Source: Patescibacteria group bacterium UBA1388
Lineage (GTDB): Bacteria > Patescibacteriota > Microgenomatia > UBA1400 > PJMF01
Assembly: GCA_002305355.1 (NCBI GenBank)
Contig: DBQS01000036.1
Location: 15,612 to 79,611, forward strand
Reading direction: 5' to 3'
Length of the DNA: 64,000 nucleotides
Positions within the stretch are counted from its first letter, which is position 1. Each line of letters opens with the position of its first letter. Below are positions 119-7,996 of the stretch, piece by piece. The translations under genes and the position numbers were made by a program. The notes beneath the pieces were generated by a model. That model was not told the origin of the DNA, searched no databases, and saw nothing but the letters and a program-made list of their open reading frames with translations.

Positions 119-307
119 TTATCTTAATAACAAAGCTTGTGCAATGAGTTTTTGAAAGATGTAGTCAAGTGCTCCAATGTAAGCACCAATGATCAAACTA
201 ACGCCAACCACCAAAATGGTCATTTCAATGGTTTGATTTTTTGAAGGCCAAGTAACTTTTTTGAGCTCTCGTCCCACTTCACGAAAATAAGATCCTGGGT
301 TAAACAT
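119..307 (-). CDS. secE: Preprotein translocase subunit SecE
   Basis: 62 aa with a single C-terminal TM helix; the REVGRELKKVTWPSKNQT motif matches the conserved SecE cytoplasmic motif. Confidence 0.8.
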   Translation of the reverse strand: MFNPGSYFREVGRELKKVTWPSKNQTIEMTILVVGVSLIIGAYIGALDYIFQKLIAQALLLR

Positions 308-505: not shown

Positions 506-2677
506 CTAACTTTTGTTGTCTGGTTTTAACTCTTCAATTTCTGAAGGGTTGTTAATACCTCCCGTCACGCCATGATCACTAACAGAAGGTTTGAGCGGGG
601 GAGTTATCCCATGGCCGTGTGTTTGAGGAGGAGTTTGAGGAGGTTGCCAAGGAATGGTTGTTGAGCCGAATCTGTCTGGGTTCTCCCCTAGATCATCTAA
701 CCGATCATCGTGTGGGGAGAAAATACTAGCCAAAAATTTAAGTACAACCACAATCAGCATGATTACACCAATACCCACAATGATAAAAGGCAAGTAAGAC
801 ATAAAATCACGTTTTGGAAATTCTGGAGCAAAGCTAGTTGACTCAGCAGCATCGAAATCGATCTCTGGAGCAGACGTTTCAGGTGTTTGATCGCTACCGG
901 GGATTGCAGATCTGATGAAATCGGCAATATCTATAAAAAACCCTTGCACCGATCCTAAAATCATATCCAGCATGCTTTCCTCAATTTCTACTTCATCGTC
1001 TATTGATGGAGGGGTAGGCGTCATAGTTGGAATGGGGGTAGGAATTGGTTTAGATGAAGCGCTGGCAGATGGCGAAGGTGAAGCTGAAGGCTGCAAACTT
1101 GAACTGACCGTTGGTGTGGCAAGTGGAGCAGTTTGACGACTATTGGTTGTCGTTGTTGATGCAGTTAATCTACCGGCGGTGGCAGCAGTACATGTTGTGC
1201 TACTGGGATTAGTTGCAAGACGGCAGGCGCCGTTGTAGCAGCGCAAGTTGTTGGCGCAATCGGCGTTGGCAGCACAGCTAACATTACACCCTTCTCTGAT
1301 TTGGGTGGTTTGATTCTCACTTAAAGTAGGACAGGAGGGGTCCTCGACATTGTAAGGATCCCGACATCGATTGTACCAACAAGTCAAGTTGCCACTACAT
1401 TCATTGGTGTCAGCACAGTATTCATTGCACGTCCTATTTAATCCTTGATCTGGAGGATTGTGGCAGACCGAGCTATTGACGTTGGTTGCCAACCGGCAGC
1501 GCTTGCCATCAACACCTGTATCGTAGCAACGCTCATTAGTGGAGCAGTCGCTATTACTGTTACAACGTTCGTTGCAAGTGTCGCTGACTTCATCATTTTC
1601 ATCATCTTCGTCGTCTTCATCTTCATCTGCAAATCTGAGGGTAAAGCTATACTGGTTATCATTTTCGTTTGATTCATCAATAGCGTTTTGATGATCAAGA
1701 CTGACGGTGAATTTATTATCGCCATCTTTAACAACAAAAACTGTTTCTAAGTCTGTTTTGGTGGCGTTTTTGTCTCTGAGCAGCGTGCTATAGCTCAAGT
1801 TTGATTTACCAAGACCACTATCAGCAGCTTGCAACACAATTTCAATCGGAGTTGGGTCGGTGCTACGTTCGTCATAGATACTATTGTTAATTTCTGCCTG
1901 ATGTTTGACAATGTAAAAATTTCCTATCTTCAGATTATCGGCACTCACCAGTTCGTTGCTATCTTGGTTATAAAAGAGAAAACGATCAGCCAACGCACTG
2001 GTGTTGGCGTATAAGTTGTCCCTCTTATCAGCAGTGGTCGCTTTTCCTACTTGAACAGTAATCGGTGCCACATGAGTGAGCTCATCTTTTATCGGTTGAG
2101 AATCGTAAATGGGAGCTATTGAGCGCTCAGTGTCAAAATTGAAAGTAATTTCACCAGTCTTGGTGGGAGTGAATGTTACAACAGCAAAAGTGGTAGCAGC
2201 ACTTGTTGAAAAAGGTTTCTCAGGATTGGATGAAATTGCTTTTATTTCCGCAGTGAAACCATGTTGAACTCGATCAACCTCTGTAGATAAAACGAGTAAA
2301 CCATCTGCTTTTGCATCAATCTGTATTTGATCAGCCACTTCAGTCACCACATCAAATACTAGCTGCACACCGTTCACTCGTACTTGATTGGTATTGACCT
2401 TTAATTCAATTGCGACTTCTTTTCCTACCACAATCTCTTGTGGATAAGTTGCGCTCACCTTCACTTTCCCTTCAACCACTGAAGCTTCTTGGCGAATATC
2501 CTGCGATTCTTGGATTGATTTTTGCGAAACGACCATTGTCAACAACAACAAACCAGTCAATACCAGCACGCCAAGCATGGTGAGCATCGATGAAGTGCGC
2601 TGCAGCCAAGGAAGCTTGTTTTTTGATGGTGAGTTCAAGTGTTGAGACATAACTGCTTTATATTGCTTTAATAACAA
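506..2677 (-). CDS. Large cell-surface protein: signal/TM (real start probably M31/M34 at 2587/2578), beta-rich cohesin-like module, poly-acidic tract, three Cys-rich modules, Pro/Thr/Ser linker, C-terminal TM anchor
   Basis: Translation shows an N-terminal hydrophobic segment MLTMLGVLVLTGLLLLTMVVS, the tract DEDEDDEDDENDE, three ~30-aa CNxxC..DC..NLxCYxxxCR modules, a PT-rich linker (PIPTPIPTMTPTPP) and a TM segment FIIVGIGVIMLIVVVLKFLASIF. Confidence 0.75.
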   Translation of the reverse strand: MLLKQYKAVMSQHLNSPSKNKLPWLQRTSSMLTMLGVLVLTGLLLLTMVVSQKSIQESQDIRQEASVVEGKVKVSATYPQEIVVGKEVAIELKVNTNQVRVNGVQLVFDVVTEVADQIQIDAKADGLLVLSTEVDRVQHGFTAEIKAISSNPEKPFSTSAATTFAVVTFTPTKTGEITFNFDTERSIAPIYDSQPIKDELTHVAPITVQVGKATTADKRDNLYANTSALADRFLFYNQDSNELVSADNLKIGNFYIVKHQAEINNSIYDERSTDPTPIEIVLQAADSGLGKSNLSYSTLLRDKNATKTDLETVFVVKDGDNKFTVSLDHQNAIDESNENDNQYSFTLRFADEDEDDEDDENDEVSDTCNERCNSNSDCSTNERCYDTGVDGKRCRLATNVNSSVCHNPPDQGLNRTCNEYCADTNECSGNLTCWYNRCRDPYNVEDPSCPTLSENQTTQIREGCNVSCAANADCANNLRCYNGACRLATNPSSTTCTAATAGRLTASTTTTNSRQTAPLATPTVSSSLQPSASPSPSASASSKPIPTPIPTMTPTPPSIDDEVEIEESMLDMILGSVQGFFIDIADFIRSAIPGSDQTPETSAPEIDFDAAESTSFAPEFPKRDFMSYLPFIIVGIGVIMLIVVVLKFLASIFSPHDDRLDDLGENPDRFGSTTIPWQPPQTPPQTHGHGITPPLKPSVSDHGVTGGINNPSEIEELKPDNKS

Positions 2678-2679
2678 AA

Positions 2680-3687
2680 TTATTTAAATGCGTTCACAAA
2701 AAGATTAAAATCCATTATATCCACTTTTTCGTCCTGATTGATATCTCCCCGCAAGCGGTAATACGACCCAGTGGCTCCATAATTGACAACTAAAATGTGA
2801 TAGTCAAACAAATCTACTAAACCGTCTTGATTGAAATCAGCGGGTGGAAGATTTGTTGGTGGGCAAGGTCTAAAGATACAATTGTTTTGGGGATCCCTGC
2901 TGACACTCGATCCATCGGGGCAAATTTTAACATCTGCTGCACAGACTATGTCTGACTCGCTTTCTGAAGTAAACGCTTCCACTTTGATATTTTTGAAAAA
3001 AATCTTGCTTCGTTCATCTGCAGATGTTAAAATCATATCTCCTTGATGGGAATATGGCTGACCAAGATTGCCTTTAAAAAAAGGAACTTCGTCAGCAGCA
3101 AAAAAAATCCATTCAGGATTAAGATTGACCGAGTCGTAGGTGCGCAATTCGTTTGTCCACCAAGTGTTGCTATCCTTATAGAAGTAGGCATAGAATCTCA
3201 TTTCTTGATCATTTTCTGTCCACGCTACTTCCAAAGTAGTGTAGTTTTGATCACCACTGGTGGGAGGGTCAGAATGGATTAAAAATTTATCAGTGTTACC
3301 CACAAATACTTCACCCTCTGACTCAATCATGAAACTATCAGCTTGAAGATAGGTATGCTCTGTTTTCCAGACGATGGGATTGTCTGTTTGGTATTGCACC
3401 GAATCAGGTGGTAATGTTTCAATCGTGGCAAAAGAATTTGATTCTGCAGCTAACTGTGAATCAGACTGAAAAGCAAGTTGTGGGGTATCATTTACAGCTT
3501 GTGAATCAATGAAAAATTGATGCAATGCTGCTGTGACCAGCATTGGTAGAAAGGCGGCGAGTAAAGCCAAGGTAATAAGTTGTTTAGGAGGTAATTGCCT
3601 AATTTTTTCGACAGCAACAAGAAATTTTGATTTAGAATGATTTAGTTTGGGTGTTGTGTCCATCGCAAAATCTTTGCTGTGCTTCAA
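2680..3687 (-). CDS. Secreted/membrane-anchored protein with a C-terminal dockerin module
   Basis: N-terminal TM LITLALLAAFLPMLVTAAL. The C-terminus DFNQDGLVDLFDYHILVVNYG...GDINQDEKVDIMDFNLFVNAFK is a duplicated DxNxDGxVDxxD calcium-binding dockerin signature. It lies 2 nt upstream of the 506..2677 gene. Confidence 0.75.
   Translation of the reverse strand: MKHSKDFAMDTTPKLNHSKSKFLVAVEKIRQLPPKQLITLALLAAFLPMLVTAALHQFFIDSQAVNDTPQLAFQSDSQLAAESNSFATIETLPPDSVQYQTDNPIVWKTEHTYLQADSFMIESEGEVFVGNTDKFLIHSDPPTSGDQNYTTLEVAWTENDQEMRFYAYFYKDSNTWWTNELRTYDSVNLNPEWIFFAADEVPFFKGNLGQPYSHQGDMILTSADERSKIFFKNIKVEAFTSESESDIVCAADVKICPDGSSVSRDPQNNCIFRPCPPTNLPPADFNQDGLVDLFDYHILVVNYGATGSYYRLRGDINQDEKVDIMDFNLFVNAFK
2683..2847 (-). 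other. Dockerin type-I-like module (two Ca-binding repeats)
   Basis: DFNQDGLVDLFD and DINQDEKVDIMD, each followed by a hydrophobic helix. Confidence 0.7.
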
Positions 3688-3810
3688 TCGGTTTAAATTT
3701 TAGCTACAATGAATCTAACATTAAAAACGCACGAGTCATAGCTACGAACCTAGCATCTAGCTTAACTCTTGAATCGAGCGGCTGTCAACATGAAATGATA
3801 AAAAATTGTT

Positions 3811-5136
3811 TTGAATAATAAAATGATCAGGGTTTATAAGTTGACACAATTAGAGAAAATCATTGTAGCTTGGTTGGTTTTAGGTTGGTCGTGGTTGGCG
3901 ACAGTAGGTTGGGTAATTGGCCTAACTGGTTTTGATTTGATTCCAGAGTTAGTGCGCGTTACATCATTTTATATTTGGAGTGAGGGGTTGATGGTGCTGA
4001 CTTTGTTGGACTGGTTGGGGCGTGTTGGGAAAACCGTCAGCTTTCCACACTTGGACAGATCAGGCAAATTATTGGGCTTGGCATTGATGATGCACCTGGG
4101 GTGGATTGCCATCACTGCGGTGTTGGGTGAAAACCCGGCCCAGAGTTTTTGGGGAAATTATTATCGACAGGACGGTTTGTTGACGCTGGCTCATCTAGCA
4201 ATGTGGGTAGTGATGATTGGCTTGTGGTGGCGAGAAATTTGGGGCCAGTGGTTATGGTTGCTGATTGCTCTAAGTGGAATAGTTTTATCACTTGGTTTGG
4301 TGTTGATGCATGTTTGGCAATGGGCAATGGTGATGGGGGGTTGGCCAGAAAGGGTAATCCAAAGTTCATTGCTGATGACTGGCGGTTTTGGTCACCCGGC
4401 TTACTTGGCGGGCTTTTTGGTGTTAACTTTGCCTTTTATTTGGTTTTTGCCTAATTTGCTTGCTAGGTCTGGTGAGTTTGAAAAGGGTTATGAGGGGCGG
4501 CGGCGGGAGTGGCTCAGGGGGGTGGGGTTGGTCAGCGCCGCCGCCGCCATCATCTTGACTCAATCAACAGGTGCTACGCTGGCCTTGGTCATTTTTTTTG
4601 GAATGACATTATTTGCATCCTTTCGTCGTCGAGCCTTGAGAATAGAGATTATTGTTTTGATCGGCGTGGCAGTCTTCGTCACCTCAACCTGGATCTATGT
4701 TTCACAACTTAATTCTTATGAAGGTAGGCCAAGAATTTTCCATAACCTGTGGTCAGCCAGTCAGCAACGACCAATTATTGGTTGGGGCTGGGCAAATATT
4801 GACTCAGCTTTTAAAAATGTAGAGTGGCCATATCCAGTGCAATTTGATGTTTATTTGGATAAAGCCCATTCTCACATGTTGGAAATATTGGTAGCAACGG
4901 GTTGGCCAGGACTAATAATCTACTTGGCTTTTATAAGTATCTTGTTGCTCATAGCTTTCAGTAAATACAAGAAAATAACACTTAAAAAAAGATCAACAAA
5001 CCAATATTATTTGGCAATACTGATGTGTTTGGTACTGTATATCTTTCACTCCCAAACAAATGTCATCTCAATTATGGAAGAAATAATCTTCTGGTTTTGT
5101 GTGGGTCTGGTGATTGACTCAACAAAAGTTATTTGA
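3811..5136 (+). CDS. O-antigen ligase (Wzy_C)-like polytopic membrane protein
   Basis: About 10 TM helices. The KAHSHMLEILVATGWPGL motif matches the Wzy_C AHNxxLxxxxExGxxG signature. Confidence 0.65.
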   Translation: MNNKMIRVYKLTQLEKIIVAWLVLGWSWLATVGWVIGLTGFDLIPELVRVTSFYIWSEGLMVLTLLDWLGRVGKTVSFPHLDRSGKLLGLALMMHLGWIAITAVLGENPAQSFWGNYYRQDGLLTLAHLAMWVVMIGLWWREIWGQWLWLLIALSGIVLSLGLVLMHVWQWAMVMGGWPERVIQSSLLMTGGFGHPAYLAGFLVLTLPFIWFLPNLLARSGEFEKGYEGRRREWLRGVGLVSAAAAIILTQSTGATLALVIFFGMTLFASFRRRALRIEIIVLIGVAVFVTSTWIYVSQLNSYEGRPRIFHNLWSASQQRPIIGWGWANIDSAFKNVEWPYPVQFDVYLDKAHSHMLEILVATGWPGLIIYLAFISILLLIAFSKYKKITLKKRSTNQYYLAILMCLVLYIFHSQTNVISIMEEIIFWFCVGLVIDSTKVI

Positions 5137-5147
5137 ACTGTTCGTCA

Positions 5148-6983
5148 CTACGAGGCATTACGAAAGATAACTACCCAAGCATTAAAATCAAGGATATCAA
5201 TCCGACCATTGTTATCCATGTCTGAAGAGGTAAATCCCGGATTACCGGTTCTACCGTACTCGCTAACAAAAACATTAAAGTCCAGAAGATTGATGATGTT
5301 GTCTTGATTGAAGTCGCCTCTCAATGTGTTGCCGGTTGAGCAAGTTGCCGTTCGAATTGAACGGGTTGGGCTTGAGCTAAAGCCATTCCATAAATTAACA
5401 TAGTATTGAGTATTTTCAGATAAATTTAGGGCAGGTTGATTGGATTGGGGTAAAAAATTGGCTGGAGCAATTATTTGAAAATATTGACTTGAGTTGTTAG
5501 CGGTGACTAGATCAACTTTCTTAATGGTGCTGCTCCAAAATTTATCGAAAGTTGGGTTTTTGCTAATATTAGCGACAGACACAGCTTGTTGGTAATTTGC
5601 TGGCCACTGAATTCTAATAATCGGCTGTCGGCCATTTTGTGTGGTGATACAGCTTGAACTAAGAGTAGGGGCTGATGGGGTCAGAGGGGTTTGTAGAAAA
5701 TTGGCAAATTCCCGATTGATCTGATTAATACTGACTCGGTTAAAAGCATTTCCTCCGGGTTCAAAATAATGTCTCATAATTGAGTTTTCAGATGAGCGGT
5801 AAAGGTTGGGGTAATAACAACCAGCTAAGCAATCCGTTCCATCAATATTTTCCCATTTTGGACAGCTGGCTACATCGCAGTTGGCTCTTGATAGGACGAA
5901 TTGTGTGTTCGAAGAAGCATGATGATCTACTAAATATTCATCTGCCAACCTACCGAATGCATGACCAAGCTCATGAACAGCTATAGATAGATAGTCCACG
6001 TCAGTCGAGACTATAGCGATTCTGTCGTAAGCAGTGCCAGCTGGTTGATTGGAATCGTAAAGTACGATGACGTTATCAACCCAAACGTATTTAAGCAACT
6101 GTACTAAAGCAGTCCGATTACACTCGATAAGAGTTTGTCCAACATATGGAATATTACAGTTAATTGATTGGGTGAATATCTTCTTGATTTTAATATCATT
6201 TCTATGCTGATTGAATGGTTTGTAGGTTAACAAATGTTGCAAGATATGATTCACATGTTGATCAAATTTTGCTCTATCTGTGTAGTTGGAGCTAACGAAA
6301 ACGAAATCAATTTGCCCGTTATAAAATGAAATATTATTTGAGTAGTTATTTTGTGTAACACCCAATACTTGTTGATCGGGATCGTCTAGGGCAAAATCTG
6401 AAGAATTCAAATCTACTGACTCAATGATTAACTCATCTTCATTGATTATGGTTGTGGGTTCGGAGGGTGACGACAAGAGTTGAGCATTAATGAGCGGAAT
6501 GATTTCTCCTGTTTCAGTTTTCCTGATCTGCAGTTGAGCTTTCGGCCACACCTTAAAAGCAATCGTCAGACTATCCTTAAGTTGACCCCCAGACCTATCA
6601 CCATCATAGTAAATTGTAAAATTAAGAGGAATGGAGTCGACAATCTCTTCTCCAACTATCTGATCTAGAATAAGTTCTGGGTTAGGTTGAGTGATAAGTG
6701 GTAAATTCATTCCTTCAAATTTTTCTACGCTTTCCAAAATAATTTTGTCATCTTGATAGGTTAAGTTGGCTAGAACAAAAATTGGCTCCTGATTTGTCGT
6801 CGCTTGACTGCGAATATCTTGAGTGCCAGGTTCCTGATCTTGAGCATTAGGTTGTTGCTCTTGGATTAAACCCAACTGCGATACCATAGGTTTAGCAGTG
6901 TAAAATAAAACACCGATTAAACTCATAAAGAGGAGAATTGTTTTAATATTAGAATAGTGATGTTGTGTTTGATGAACCAACAT
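5148..6983 (-). CDS. Secreted zinc metalloprotease (HExxH...DEY, M64-like) with a C-terminal dockerin module
   Basis: N-terminal signal/TM ILLFMSLIGVLFYTA; VHELGHAFGRLADEY at nt 5934..5975; C-terminus DFNQDNIINLLDFNVFVSEYG...DMDNNGRIDILDFNAWVVIF. Confidence 0.75.
   Translation of the reverse strand: MLVHQTQHHYSNIKTILLFMSLIGVLFYTAKPMVSQLGLIQEQQPNAQDQEPGTQDIRSQATTNQEPIFVLANLTYQDDKIILESVEKFEGMNLPLITQPNPELILDQIVGEEIVDSIPLNFTIYYDGDRSGGQLKDSLTIAFKVWPKAQLQIRKTETGEIIPLINAQLLSSPSEPTTIINEDELIIESVDLNSSDFALDDPDQQVLGVTQNNYSNNISFYNGQIDFVFVSSNYTDRAKFDQHVNHILQHLLTYKPFNQHRNDIKIKKIFTQSINCNIPYVGQTLIECNRTALVQLLKYVWVDNVIVLYDSNQPAGTAYDRIAIVSTDVDYLSIAVHELGHAFGRLADEYLVDHHASSNTQFVLSRANCDVASCPKWENIDGTDCLAGCYYPNLYRSSENSIMRHYFEPGGNAFNRVSINQINREFANFLQTPLTPSAPTLSSSCITTQNGRQPIIRIQWPANYQQAVSVANISKNPTFDKFWSSTIKKVDLVTANNSSQYFQIIAPANFLPQSNQPALNLSENTQYYVNLWNGFSSSPTRSIRTATCSTGNTLRGDFNQDNIINLLDFNVFVSEYGRTGNPGFTSSDMDNNGRIDILDFNAWVVIFRNAS
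5151..5321 (-). other. Dockerin type-I-like module (two Ca-binding repeats)
   Basis: DFNQDNIINLLD and DMDNNGRIDILD repeats. Confidence 0.7.
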
Positions 6984-7105: not shown

Positions 7106-7996
7106 ATGACAGAGAGTATTGTTCGTAAAGCTATCATTACCGACGCTGGGTTTGCCAGTAGGTACTTACCCATTACTAAGACTATTCCCAAAGCGATGTT
7201 GCCGCTTGGCAACAAACCAGTCATGCAGTTCATGGTGGAGGAGTGTACACAGGCTGGAATCCAGGAAATTATTATTGTGGCCACCCCAGAGGGTAAACCA
7301 ATTTATGAGGATTATTTCCATAATAGTGTAATTCGGATCAAGAAGCAGCTTGAGTCGCAAGGTAAATTGGATCGTTACGAGCCTGTACAGCGAGTATTAG
7401 ACTTCCCTAAAATTACCATCATCACTCAAGACCCAAGCTTGCCATATGGTAATGGTTCACCAGTCGCATCTGCTCAAAAATTTGTCGAGGGAGAAGAAGC
7501 ATTTTTGGTAATGTACAGTGATGATGTGGTTTATGGCGAACATGGTGATGCCAAGGCATTGGTTGACTTATTTGCTGCTCGAAAAGATGCCGATGCGATT
7601 ATTATGGCTCAAGAGGTGAGCTCGGAAGTTGTTGACAAGTATGGCATTATTTCTTTTAAAGATGGCACCGATAATCAACTTGATAACATTATTGAAAAAC
7701 CAGAAGTTGGTCAAGCTCCTTCCACGCTGGCTTCTTATGGCCGTTACCTGTTGAAACCCTCAATATTTGATCATCTGGTGCCGAAGTATACGGGCAAAGA
7801 CGGTGAGTTGTGGACAGTTGATGCGATCACTAAAATTGCTGAGTCAGGAACAGTGTTGGTAGAAAAAACTAAAGGCCAATGGCTTACAACCGGCGATCCG
7901 GAAAATTATTTTAGAGCTTATTTGGAATTTGTGATCAAGTTTGAAAAATATGGTCACAAAATACCGGCGTGGTTAGAAGAAATTGGTGGAGTTTGA
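7106..7996 (+). CDS. galU: UTP-glucose-1-phosphate uridylyltransferase
   Basis: ITDAGFASRYLPITKTIPKAMLPLGNKPVMQFMVEE is the nucleotidyltransferase G-loop typical of GalU. GGGAGG RBS 4 nt upstream. Confidence 0.75.
   Translation: MTESIVRKAIITDAGFASRYLPITKTIPKAMLPLGNKPVMQFMVEECTQAGIQEIIIVATPEGKPIYEDYFHNSVIRIKKQLESQGKLDRYEPVQRVLDFPKITIITQDPSLPYGNGSPVASAQKFVEGEEAFLVMYSDDVVYGEHGDAKALVDLFAARKDADAIIMAQEVSSEVVDKYGIISFKDGTDNQLDNIIEKPEVGQAPSTLASYGRYLLKPSIFDHLVPKYTGKDGELWTVDAITKIAESGTVLVEKTKGQWLTTGDPENYFRAYLEFVIKFEKYGHKIPAWLEEIGGV

Follow-up and report, generated by a model that had tools for sequence, protein, structure and literature searches.

The window (the whole 64-kb stretch of DNA that was analysed) contains, next to secE, a locus that likely encodes a non-cellulosomal cohesin-dockerin surface-display system, in which a membrane-anchored protein with a predicted cohesin fold would capture secreted proteins ending in dockerins. 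The initial annotation had proposed a membrane-anchored cohesin-fold protein with dockerin-tagged secreted proteins beside secE; our analysis supports this central reading, which is further backed by cargo-anchor-secE synteny, domain fusion, cohesin-plus-dockerin adaptors, co-divergence and an allelic cassette. The accompanying claim of a new surface-display mechanism was overstated, the locus being a variant of known cohesin-dockerin anchoring. The organism is a Patescibacterium (CPR), in line with the episymbiont-type genome suggested earlier, and is probably host-dependent.

Results

Organisation of the locus

All four ORFs previously listed (anchor, two dockerin cargo proteins and a Wzy_C membrane protein) were recovered (Table 1). 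They had been described as four consecutive envelope genes, but the Wzy_C gene lies on the strand opposite to the other three. The anchor and cargo genes were also said to share a strand with secE-nusG: secE indeed adjoins the anchor gene, while nusG, following secE, falls beyond the window start and was seen in a related locus (L001). The reported 2-nt spacing between the anchor and the 335-aa ORF holds with a TTG start; however, anchor orthologues begin at an ATG (MMTKRP.NKLPWLQ) equivalent to ATG 2650 in the window, which widens the gap to ~29 nt. For the 335-aa ORF, the gene caller placed the start at ATG 3663 (327 aa).

Table 1. Coordinates of the genes, domains and motifs of the locus in the window
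Feature	Position	Strand	Remarks
secE	119..307	-	PF00584 E 5.5e-20; conserved downstream neighbour of anchor gene
Anchor protein ORF	506..2677	-	723 aa as longest ORF; probable start ATG 2650 = 714 aa
Pro-rich cytoplasmic tail, residues 651-723	509..727	-	Lacks the MLERLKxKGI motif of relatives
C-terminal TM anchor, residues 625-650	728..805	-	Kyte-Doolittle peak 3.04
Ser/Thr/Pro/Ala-rich linker, residues 498-560	998..1186	-	Sequence composition
Three 6-Cys repeats, residues 368-405, 417-449, 464-496	1187..1576	-	Proposed stalk
Second beta domain (domain 2), residues 218-352	1622..2026	-	Weakly CARDB-like: PF07705 E 0.0028, below cutoff
Cohesin-fold module (predicted), residues 67-212	2042..2479	-	Nine-strand beta sandwich
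SQDIRQEA motif, residues 58-65	2483..2506	-	Near-invariant in family; in low-pLDDT linker
N-terminal TM helix / signal anchor, residues 32-52	2522..2584	-	Kyte-Doolittle peak 2.53
Dockerin cargo 1 ORF	2680..3687	-	335 aa; probable start ATG 3663
Dockerin of cargo 1	2683..2853	-	Loops DFNQDGLVDLFD and DINQDEKVDIMD
Wzy_C polytopic membrane protein (O-antigen ligase/polymerase-like)	3811..5136	+	441 aa; opposite strand; accessory neighbour
Dockerin cargo 2 ORF	5148..6983	-	611 aa; M64-type zinc metallopeptidase
Dockerin of cargo 2	5151..5330	-	Loops DFNQDNIINLLD and DMDNNGRIDILD
HELGH of M64 zinc site	5961-5975	-	Cargo 2
galU-type UTP-glucose-1-phosphate uridylyltransferase	7106..7996	+	Divergent, conserved upstream boundary of locus

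Dockerin tails of the cargo proteins

Scanning all six frames of the window for the loop motif D-x-[NDS]-x-[DN]-x-x-[IVLM]-[DNST]-x-x-D returned four matches, all of them in the C-terminal 60 residues of the 335-aa and 611-aa ORFs, whereas residue shuffles gave 0.09 on average and never more than 1; the duplicated Ca-binding loops noted earlier in both C-terminal tails were thus borne out. The loops are paired in each tail, with starts 31 residues apart at the extreme C-terminus, and both tails follow the type I dockerin layout of tandem 12-residue loops with D/N at positions 1, 3, 5, 9 and 12. The proposed profile check against PF00404 gave a match for each tail (20.8 bits, E 4.5e-4 and 19.6 bits, E 1e-3), both slightly under the gathering threshold of 22.9 bits, while 8 of 10 counterparts at the syntenic position in related loci score above this cutoff (23.2-43.4 bits). 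A lineage-specific dockerin HMM, built from the syntenic counterparts together with the two window tails, scored the latter at 80 and 73 bits, values that are partly self-scoring. The 611-aa tail also matched a crystallised cellulosomal dockerin (2y3n_B, E 1.7e-3). The tails are probably type-I-like dockerins, for which Ca2+-dependent binding to a cohesin would be expected.

A predicted cohesin fold at the N-terminal part of the anchor

The beta-rich module of the 723-aa protein was located exactly where the initial annotation had placed it, and its reading as a cohesin held at the level of fold, though not of sequence. Rather than a different fold, a cohesin fold was predicted with high confidence (AF2, pLDDT 93.6, 58-sequence alignment): the model is a nine-stranded jelly-roll beta-sandwich superimposable on solved cohesins, and the structures it matches best are specifically cohesins that bind dockerins, several having been solved as complexes. 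Strands of the 8-3-6-5 dockerin-binding sheet were more conserved than those of the other sheet (0.54 vs 0.44, p = 0.02, canonical strand pairing being assumed). By contrast, no cohesin profile match emerged at any threshold, PF00963 being absent at E<=1 from the 723-aa protein and from 58/58 relatives; the family profile had 0 matches to PDB sequences at E<=10, and hhalign against CipA cohesin-2 (comparison sequence verified identical to 1ohz_A) gave a probability of 0.5%. Given the lack of a sequence-level link to cohesins, the fold could be convergent or serve another ligand.

A library of 1.84 billion proteins yielded 169 representative clusters of the anchor family, and the public names found for its members were all 'hypothetical' or 'Unknown Function'. 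Every one of 139 family representatives carries a single cohesin module. From the N- to the C-terminus, the anchor consists of a TM helix, the QDxRxxA motif (a candidate processing or sorting signal), the cohesin-fold module, the CARDB-like domain 2, which is kept in a subset of relatives, an acidic run, three 6-Cys repeats, a Ser/Thr/Pro linker, the C-terminal TM and a Pro-rich cytoplasmic tail. Within the two TM segments of Table 1, the helices were placed at residues 32-50 and 631-649. The repeats (consensus CNxxCxSNxDCxxNxRCYxGxCRLATNPSSxxC) matched no Pfam family and occur in 95 of the 139 representatives.

Cargo proteins and the Wzy gene

Cargo 1 is composed of an N-terminal TM, a core (residues ~100-240), a 4-Cys linker and the dockerin; cargo 2 has an N-terminal TM, a TQDIRSQA motif, an M64-type zinc metallopeptidase and the dockerin. 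The peptidase assignment is based on a partial-profile match to PF09471 (32.3 bits, cutoff 26 bits), which all of the homologues P0002-P0007 also carry, and on the alignment of VHELGHAFGRLADEY with VHEFGHSFGGLADEY of the 3p1v active-site segment, where the HExxH...DEY zinc site was found. The 441-aa ORF, with about 10 or more hydrophobic segments, matched PF04932 above cutoff (60.3 bits vs 31.7, E 2.4e-16), which confirmed its description as an O-antigen-ligase-like gene. No CBM or GH Pfam match was obtained in the anchor or cargo, and no multi-cohesin scaffoldin was found, so the system does not qualify as a cellulosome.

Conservation across related loci

Of 27 related loci, 25 retain the gene order anchor-secE-nusG, often with hardly any spacer. 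In 11 of the 23 loci that could be assessed, with two additional weak cases, a dockerin gene precedes the anchor on the same strand at a distance of 10-62 nt (median 25). Its absence beside the anchor in the other 10 suggests that the core role of the anchor may not need this neighbour. The cargo at the upstream site varies between 125 and 535 aa, with unrelated cores, and the site is sometimes empty. Across ~390 kb of related loci, the lineage-specific HMM found matches only in ORFs one to two genes upstream of the anchor. Of the four genes initially thought to be involved, cargo and anchor form the conserved core; the Wzy gene is limited to three lineages (that of the window, L002 and L013) and the M64 protease to the window sub-lineage, both being lineage-specific add-ons rather than conserved components.

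In one metagenome-assembled locus (L007), the cargo 1 core (36% identity, E 7e-21) forms part of the anchor itself through a fusion that places it after the cohesin and before domain 2, and there is no separate dockerin gene. Furthermore, 9 of 139 family representatives combine a cohesin module with a C-terminal dockerin in the same protein, as expected of adaptors, and in one locus (L029) such an adaptor gene sits beside a cohesin anchor gene. The proposed display of enzymes on the cell surface looks lineage-wide.

Co-divergence and allelic exchange

Dockerin and cohesin divergences were strongly correlated (r = 0.81; partial Mantel r = 0.73 given NusG, p = 2e-4), with lower values for linked controls (0.33-0.56), and the partial correlation was still 0.64-0.67 with galU or the Cys repeats as the control. 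Physical linkage with joint recombination, as opposed to co-adaptation, could account for this co-divergence. Near-identical strains, whose flanking sequences match at 97-100%, exchange cargo, cohesin and domain 2 as a single allelic cassette: the cargo gene (72% nt identity) and the cohesin (71% aa identity, with saturated dS) have been replaced jointly. For the M64 protease gene, identity is 99.8% in strains with cohesins that share 71%, suggesting that the protease dockerin is either compatible with both alleles or attaches at some other site.

Discussion

Proposed mechanism and alternative explanations

We propose that the anchor is exported via Sec, with the C-terminal TM helix then fixing it in the cytoplasmic membrane. 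Three disulfide-rich repeats, the CARDB-like domain and the Ser/Thr/Pro linker would form a stalk, with a single cohesin-fold module at the N-terminal and putatively distal tip. The cohesin is probably freed from the N-terminal TM by cleavage at or near the QDxRxxA motif; if this TM stayed uncleaved, the cohesin would lie near the membrane instead of distally. Secreted proteins ending in dockerins would plug into the cohesin in a Ca2+-dependent manner and stay on the surface, among them the 335-aa product of the gene immediately upstream and probably also the M64 metalloprotease, in which case a single cohesin would have to serve two dockerins. Co-transcription of the anchor with secE appears plausible from the gene arrangement.

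Alternatively, the cohesin-fold module could be an adhesin or receptor-binding tip for a host-cell or environmental ligand (glycan or protein) rather than for the neighbouring dockerins, which would then serve as Ca-dependent modules for stabilisation or for binding glycans or the wall, or have a different partner; the proximity and co-variation of the genes would follow from their joint selection and joint recombination as surface-exposed genes. We consider this unlikely, even though no cohesin signature is visible in the module's sequence, the anchor stands without a dockerin gene next to it in ten loci, and the protease dockerin does not co-vary with the cohesin. The cohesin is also the most variable part of the anchor, with old alleles being exchanged, a pattern typical of a recognition tip exposed to host or phage, and a study of Saccharibacteria put forward, as speculation, host glycans as the targets of dockerin proteins (PMC10633639). 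Against it, the best structural matches are to dockerin-binding cohesins, dockerins in ~390 kb of related loci are confined to the neighbourhood of the cohesin module, dockerin-cohesin co-divergence exceeds that of linked controls, and both the adaptor proteins and the L007 fusion would be expected if the system serves tethering.

A more far-reaching extension, quite unlikely in our estimation, would see the anchor with its swappable cohesin tip and co-inherited dockerin cargo as an essential-like organ of host or prey recognition and attack, hard-wired beside secE. Recombination would reshuffle anciently diverged alleles of cargo, cohesin and domain 2, thereby altering host range or evading phage, the system-restricted TM and QDxRxxA motif would mark an unrecognised sorting or processing pathway, and the same hidden class of cohesins would supply the missing partner of the essential Saccharibacteria dockerin protein.

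It is very unlikely that the anchor is a housekeeping envelope protein tied to SecE/NusG (a wall-spanning structural or export-associated factor), with the beta-sandwich as a generic Ig-like spacer and dockerin genes as incidental insertions between galU and the anchor. Its near-constant position before secE-nusG, apparently single copy and, in relatives, conserved cytoplasmic tail motif would suit such a role, as would the variability of the upstream cargo. However, all insertions at the upstream site end in a dockerin, whereas a merely permissive site would gather unrelated genes; the cohesin module is the least conserved part of the anchor between strains, unlike a spacer, and the fold match is specific to cohesins as opposed to generic Ig domains. 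Finally, a chance resemblance without any functional system, in which the tails are generic EF-hand-like Ca loops and the AF2 beta sandwich is over-confident, would agree with the sub-cutoff Pfam scores and the missing cohesin profile match, but is extremely improbable given the excess of loop motifs, the orthologous tails passing the Pfam cutoff, the PDB dockerin match, the confident module model and synteny conserved across 27 loci.

Relation to known systems

Among the closest known systems are the non-cellulosomal modules of Clostridium perfringens (NanJ GH33 sialidase cohesin, 2vo8; NagJ/GH84C cohesin, 2w1n and 2o4e; 2jh2). The C. perfringens cohesins can be recognised from sequence and form part of secreted glycoside hydrolases instead of being carried by a two-TM membrane anchor, and they lack the secE association, 6-Cys stalk and QDxRxxA motif present here. 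Cellulosomal anchoring scaffoldins are similarly close (C. thermocellum SdbA/OlpB/OlpA/OlpC, 4dh2 and 3ul4; R. flavefaciens ScaE, 2zf9), but are anchored to the wall through SLH domains or a sortase LPXTG signal, while here the C-terminal TM helix serves as the anchor, the cargo comprises a metalloprotease and uncharacterised domains in place of glycoside hydrolases, and CBMs, a multi-cohesin primary scaffoldin and a detectable PF00963 are lacking. A third close system is the non-cellulosomal cohesin of Archaeoglobus fulgidus (2xdh), which, like a wider set of non-cellulosomal cohesin and dockerin modules, was reportedly discovered via sequence similarity; in contrast, sequence searches miss the present family, which is linked to a fixed place in the genome. 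For that wider set, the passage of PMC10066038 that refers to it cites Peer et al. 2009.

Significance for Patescibacteria

Patescibacteria (CPR) account for a large share of bacterial diversity, and cultivated members live attached to host cells; to our knowledge, their surface organisation is largely unknown. Dockerin proteins have already been reported from Patescibacteria, and profile searches find no cohesin partner for them. In the Saccharibacterium Southlakia epibionticum, which belongs to a different class of the phylum from the window organism, SEML1_0315 is likewise an envelope protein with a dockerin domain; it is essential by Tn-seq, and the study names no cohesin partner (PMC10633639). 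The anchor is a probable partner of Patescibacterial dockerins, of which we found no description in the literature searched, from a family that is undetectable as cohesin by sequence, fixed in a housekeeping position and genetically coupled to dockerin cargo. The recombining allelic cassette makes the locus a candidate determinant of host or phage specificity. If binding is confirmed, Patescibacterial dockerins would gain a concrete partner, a handle would become available to display or remove surface enzymes in these bacteria, and fold-based annotation would have recovered a whole interaction system missed by profile methods.

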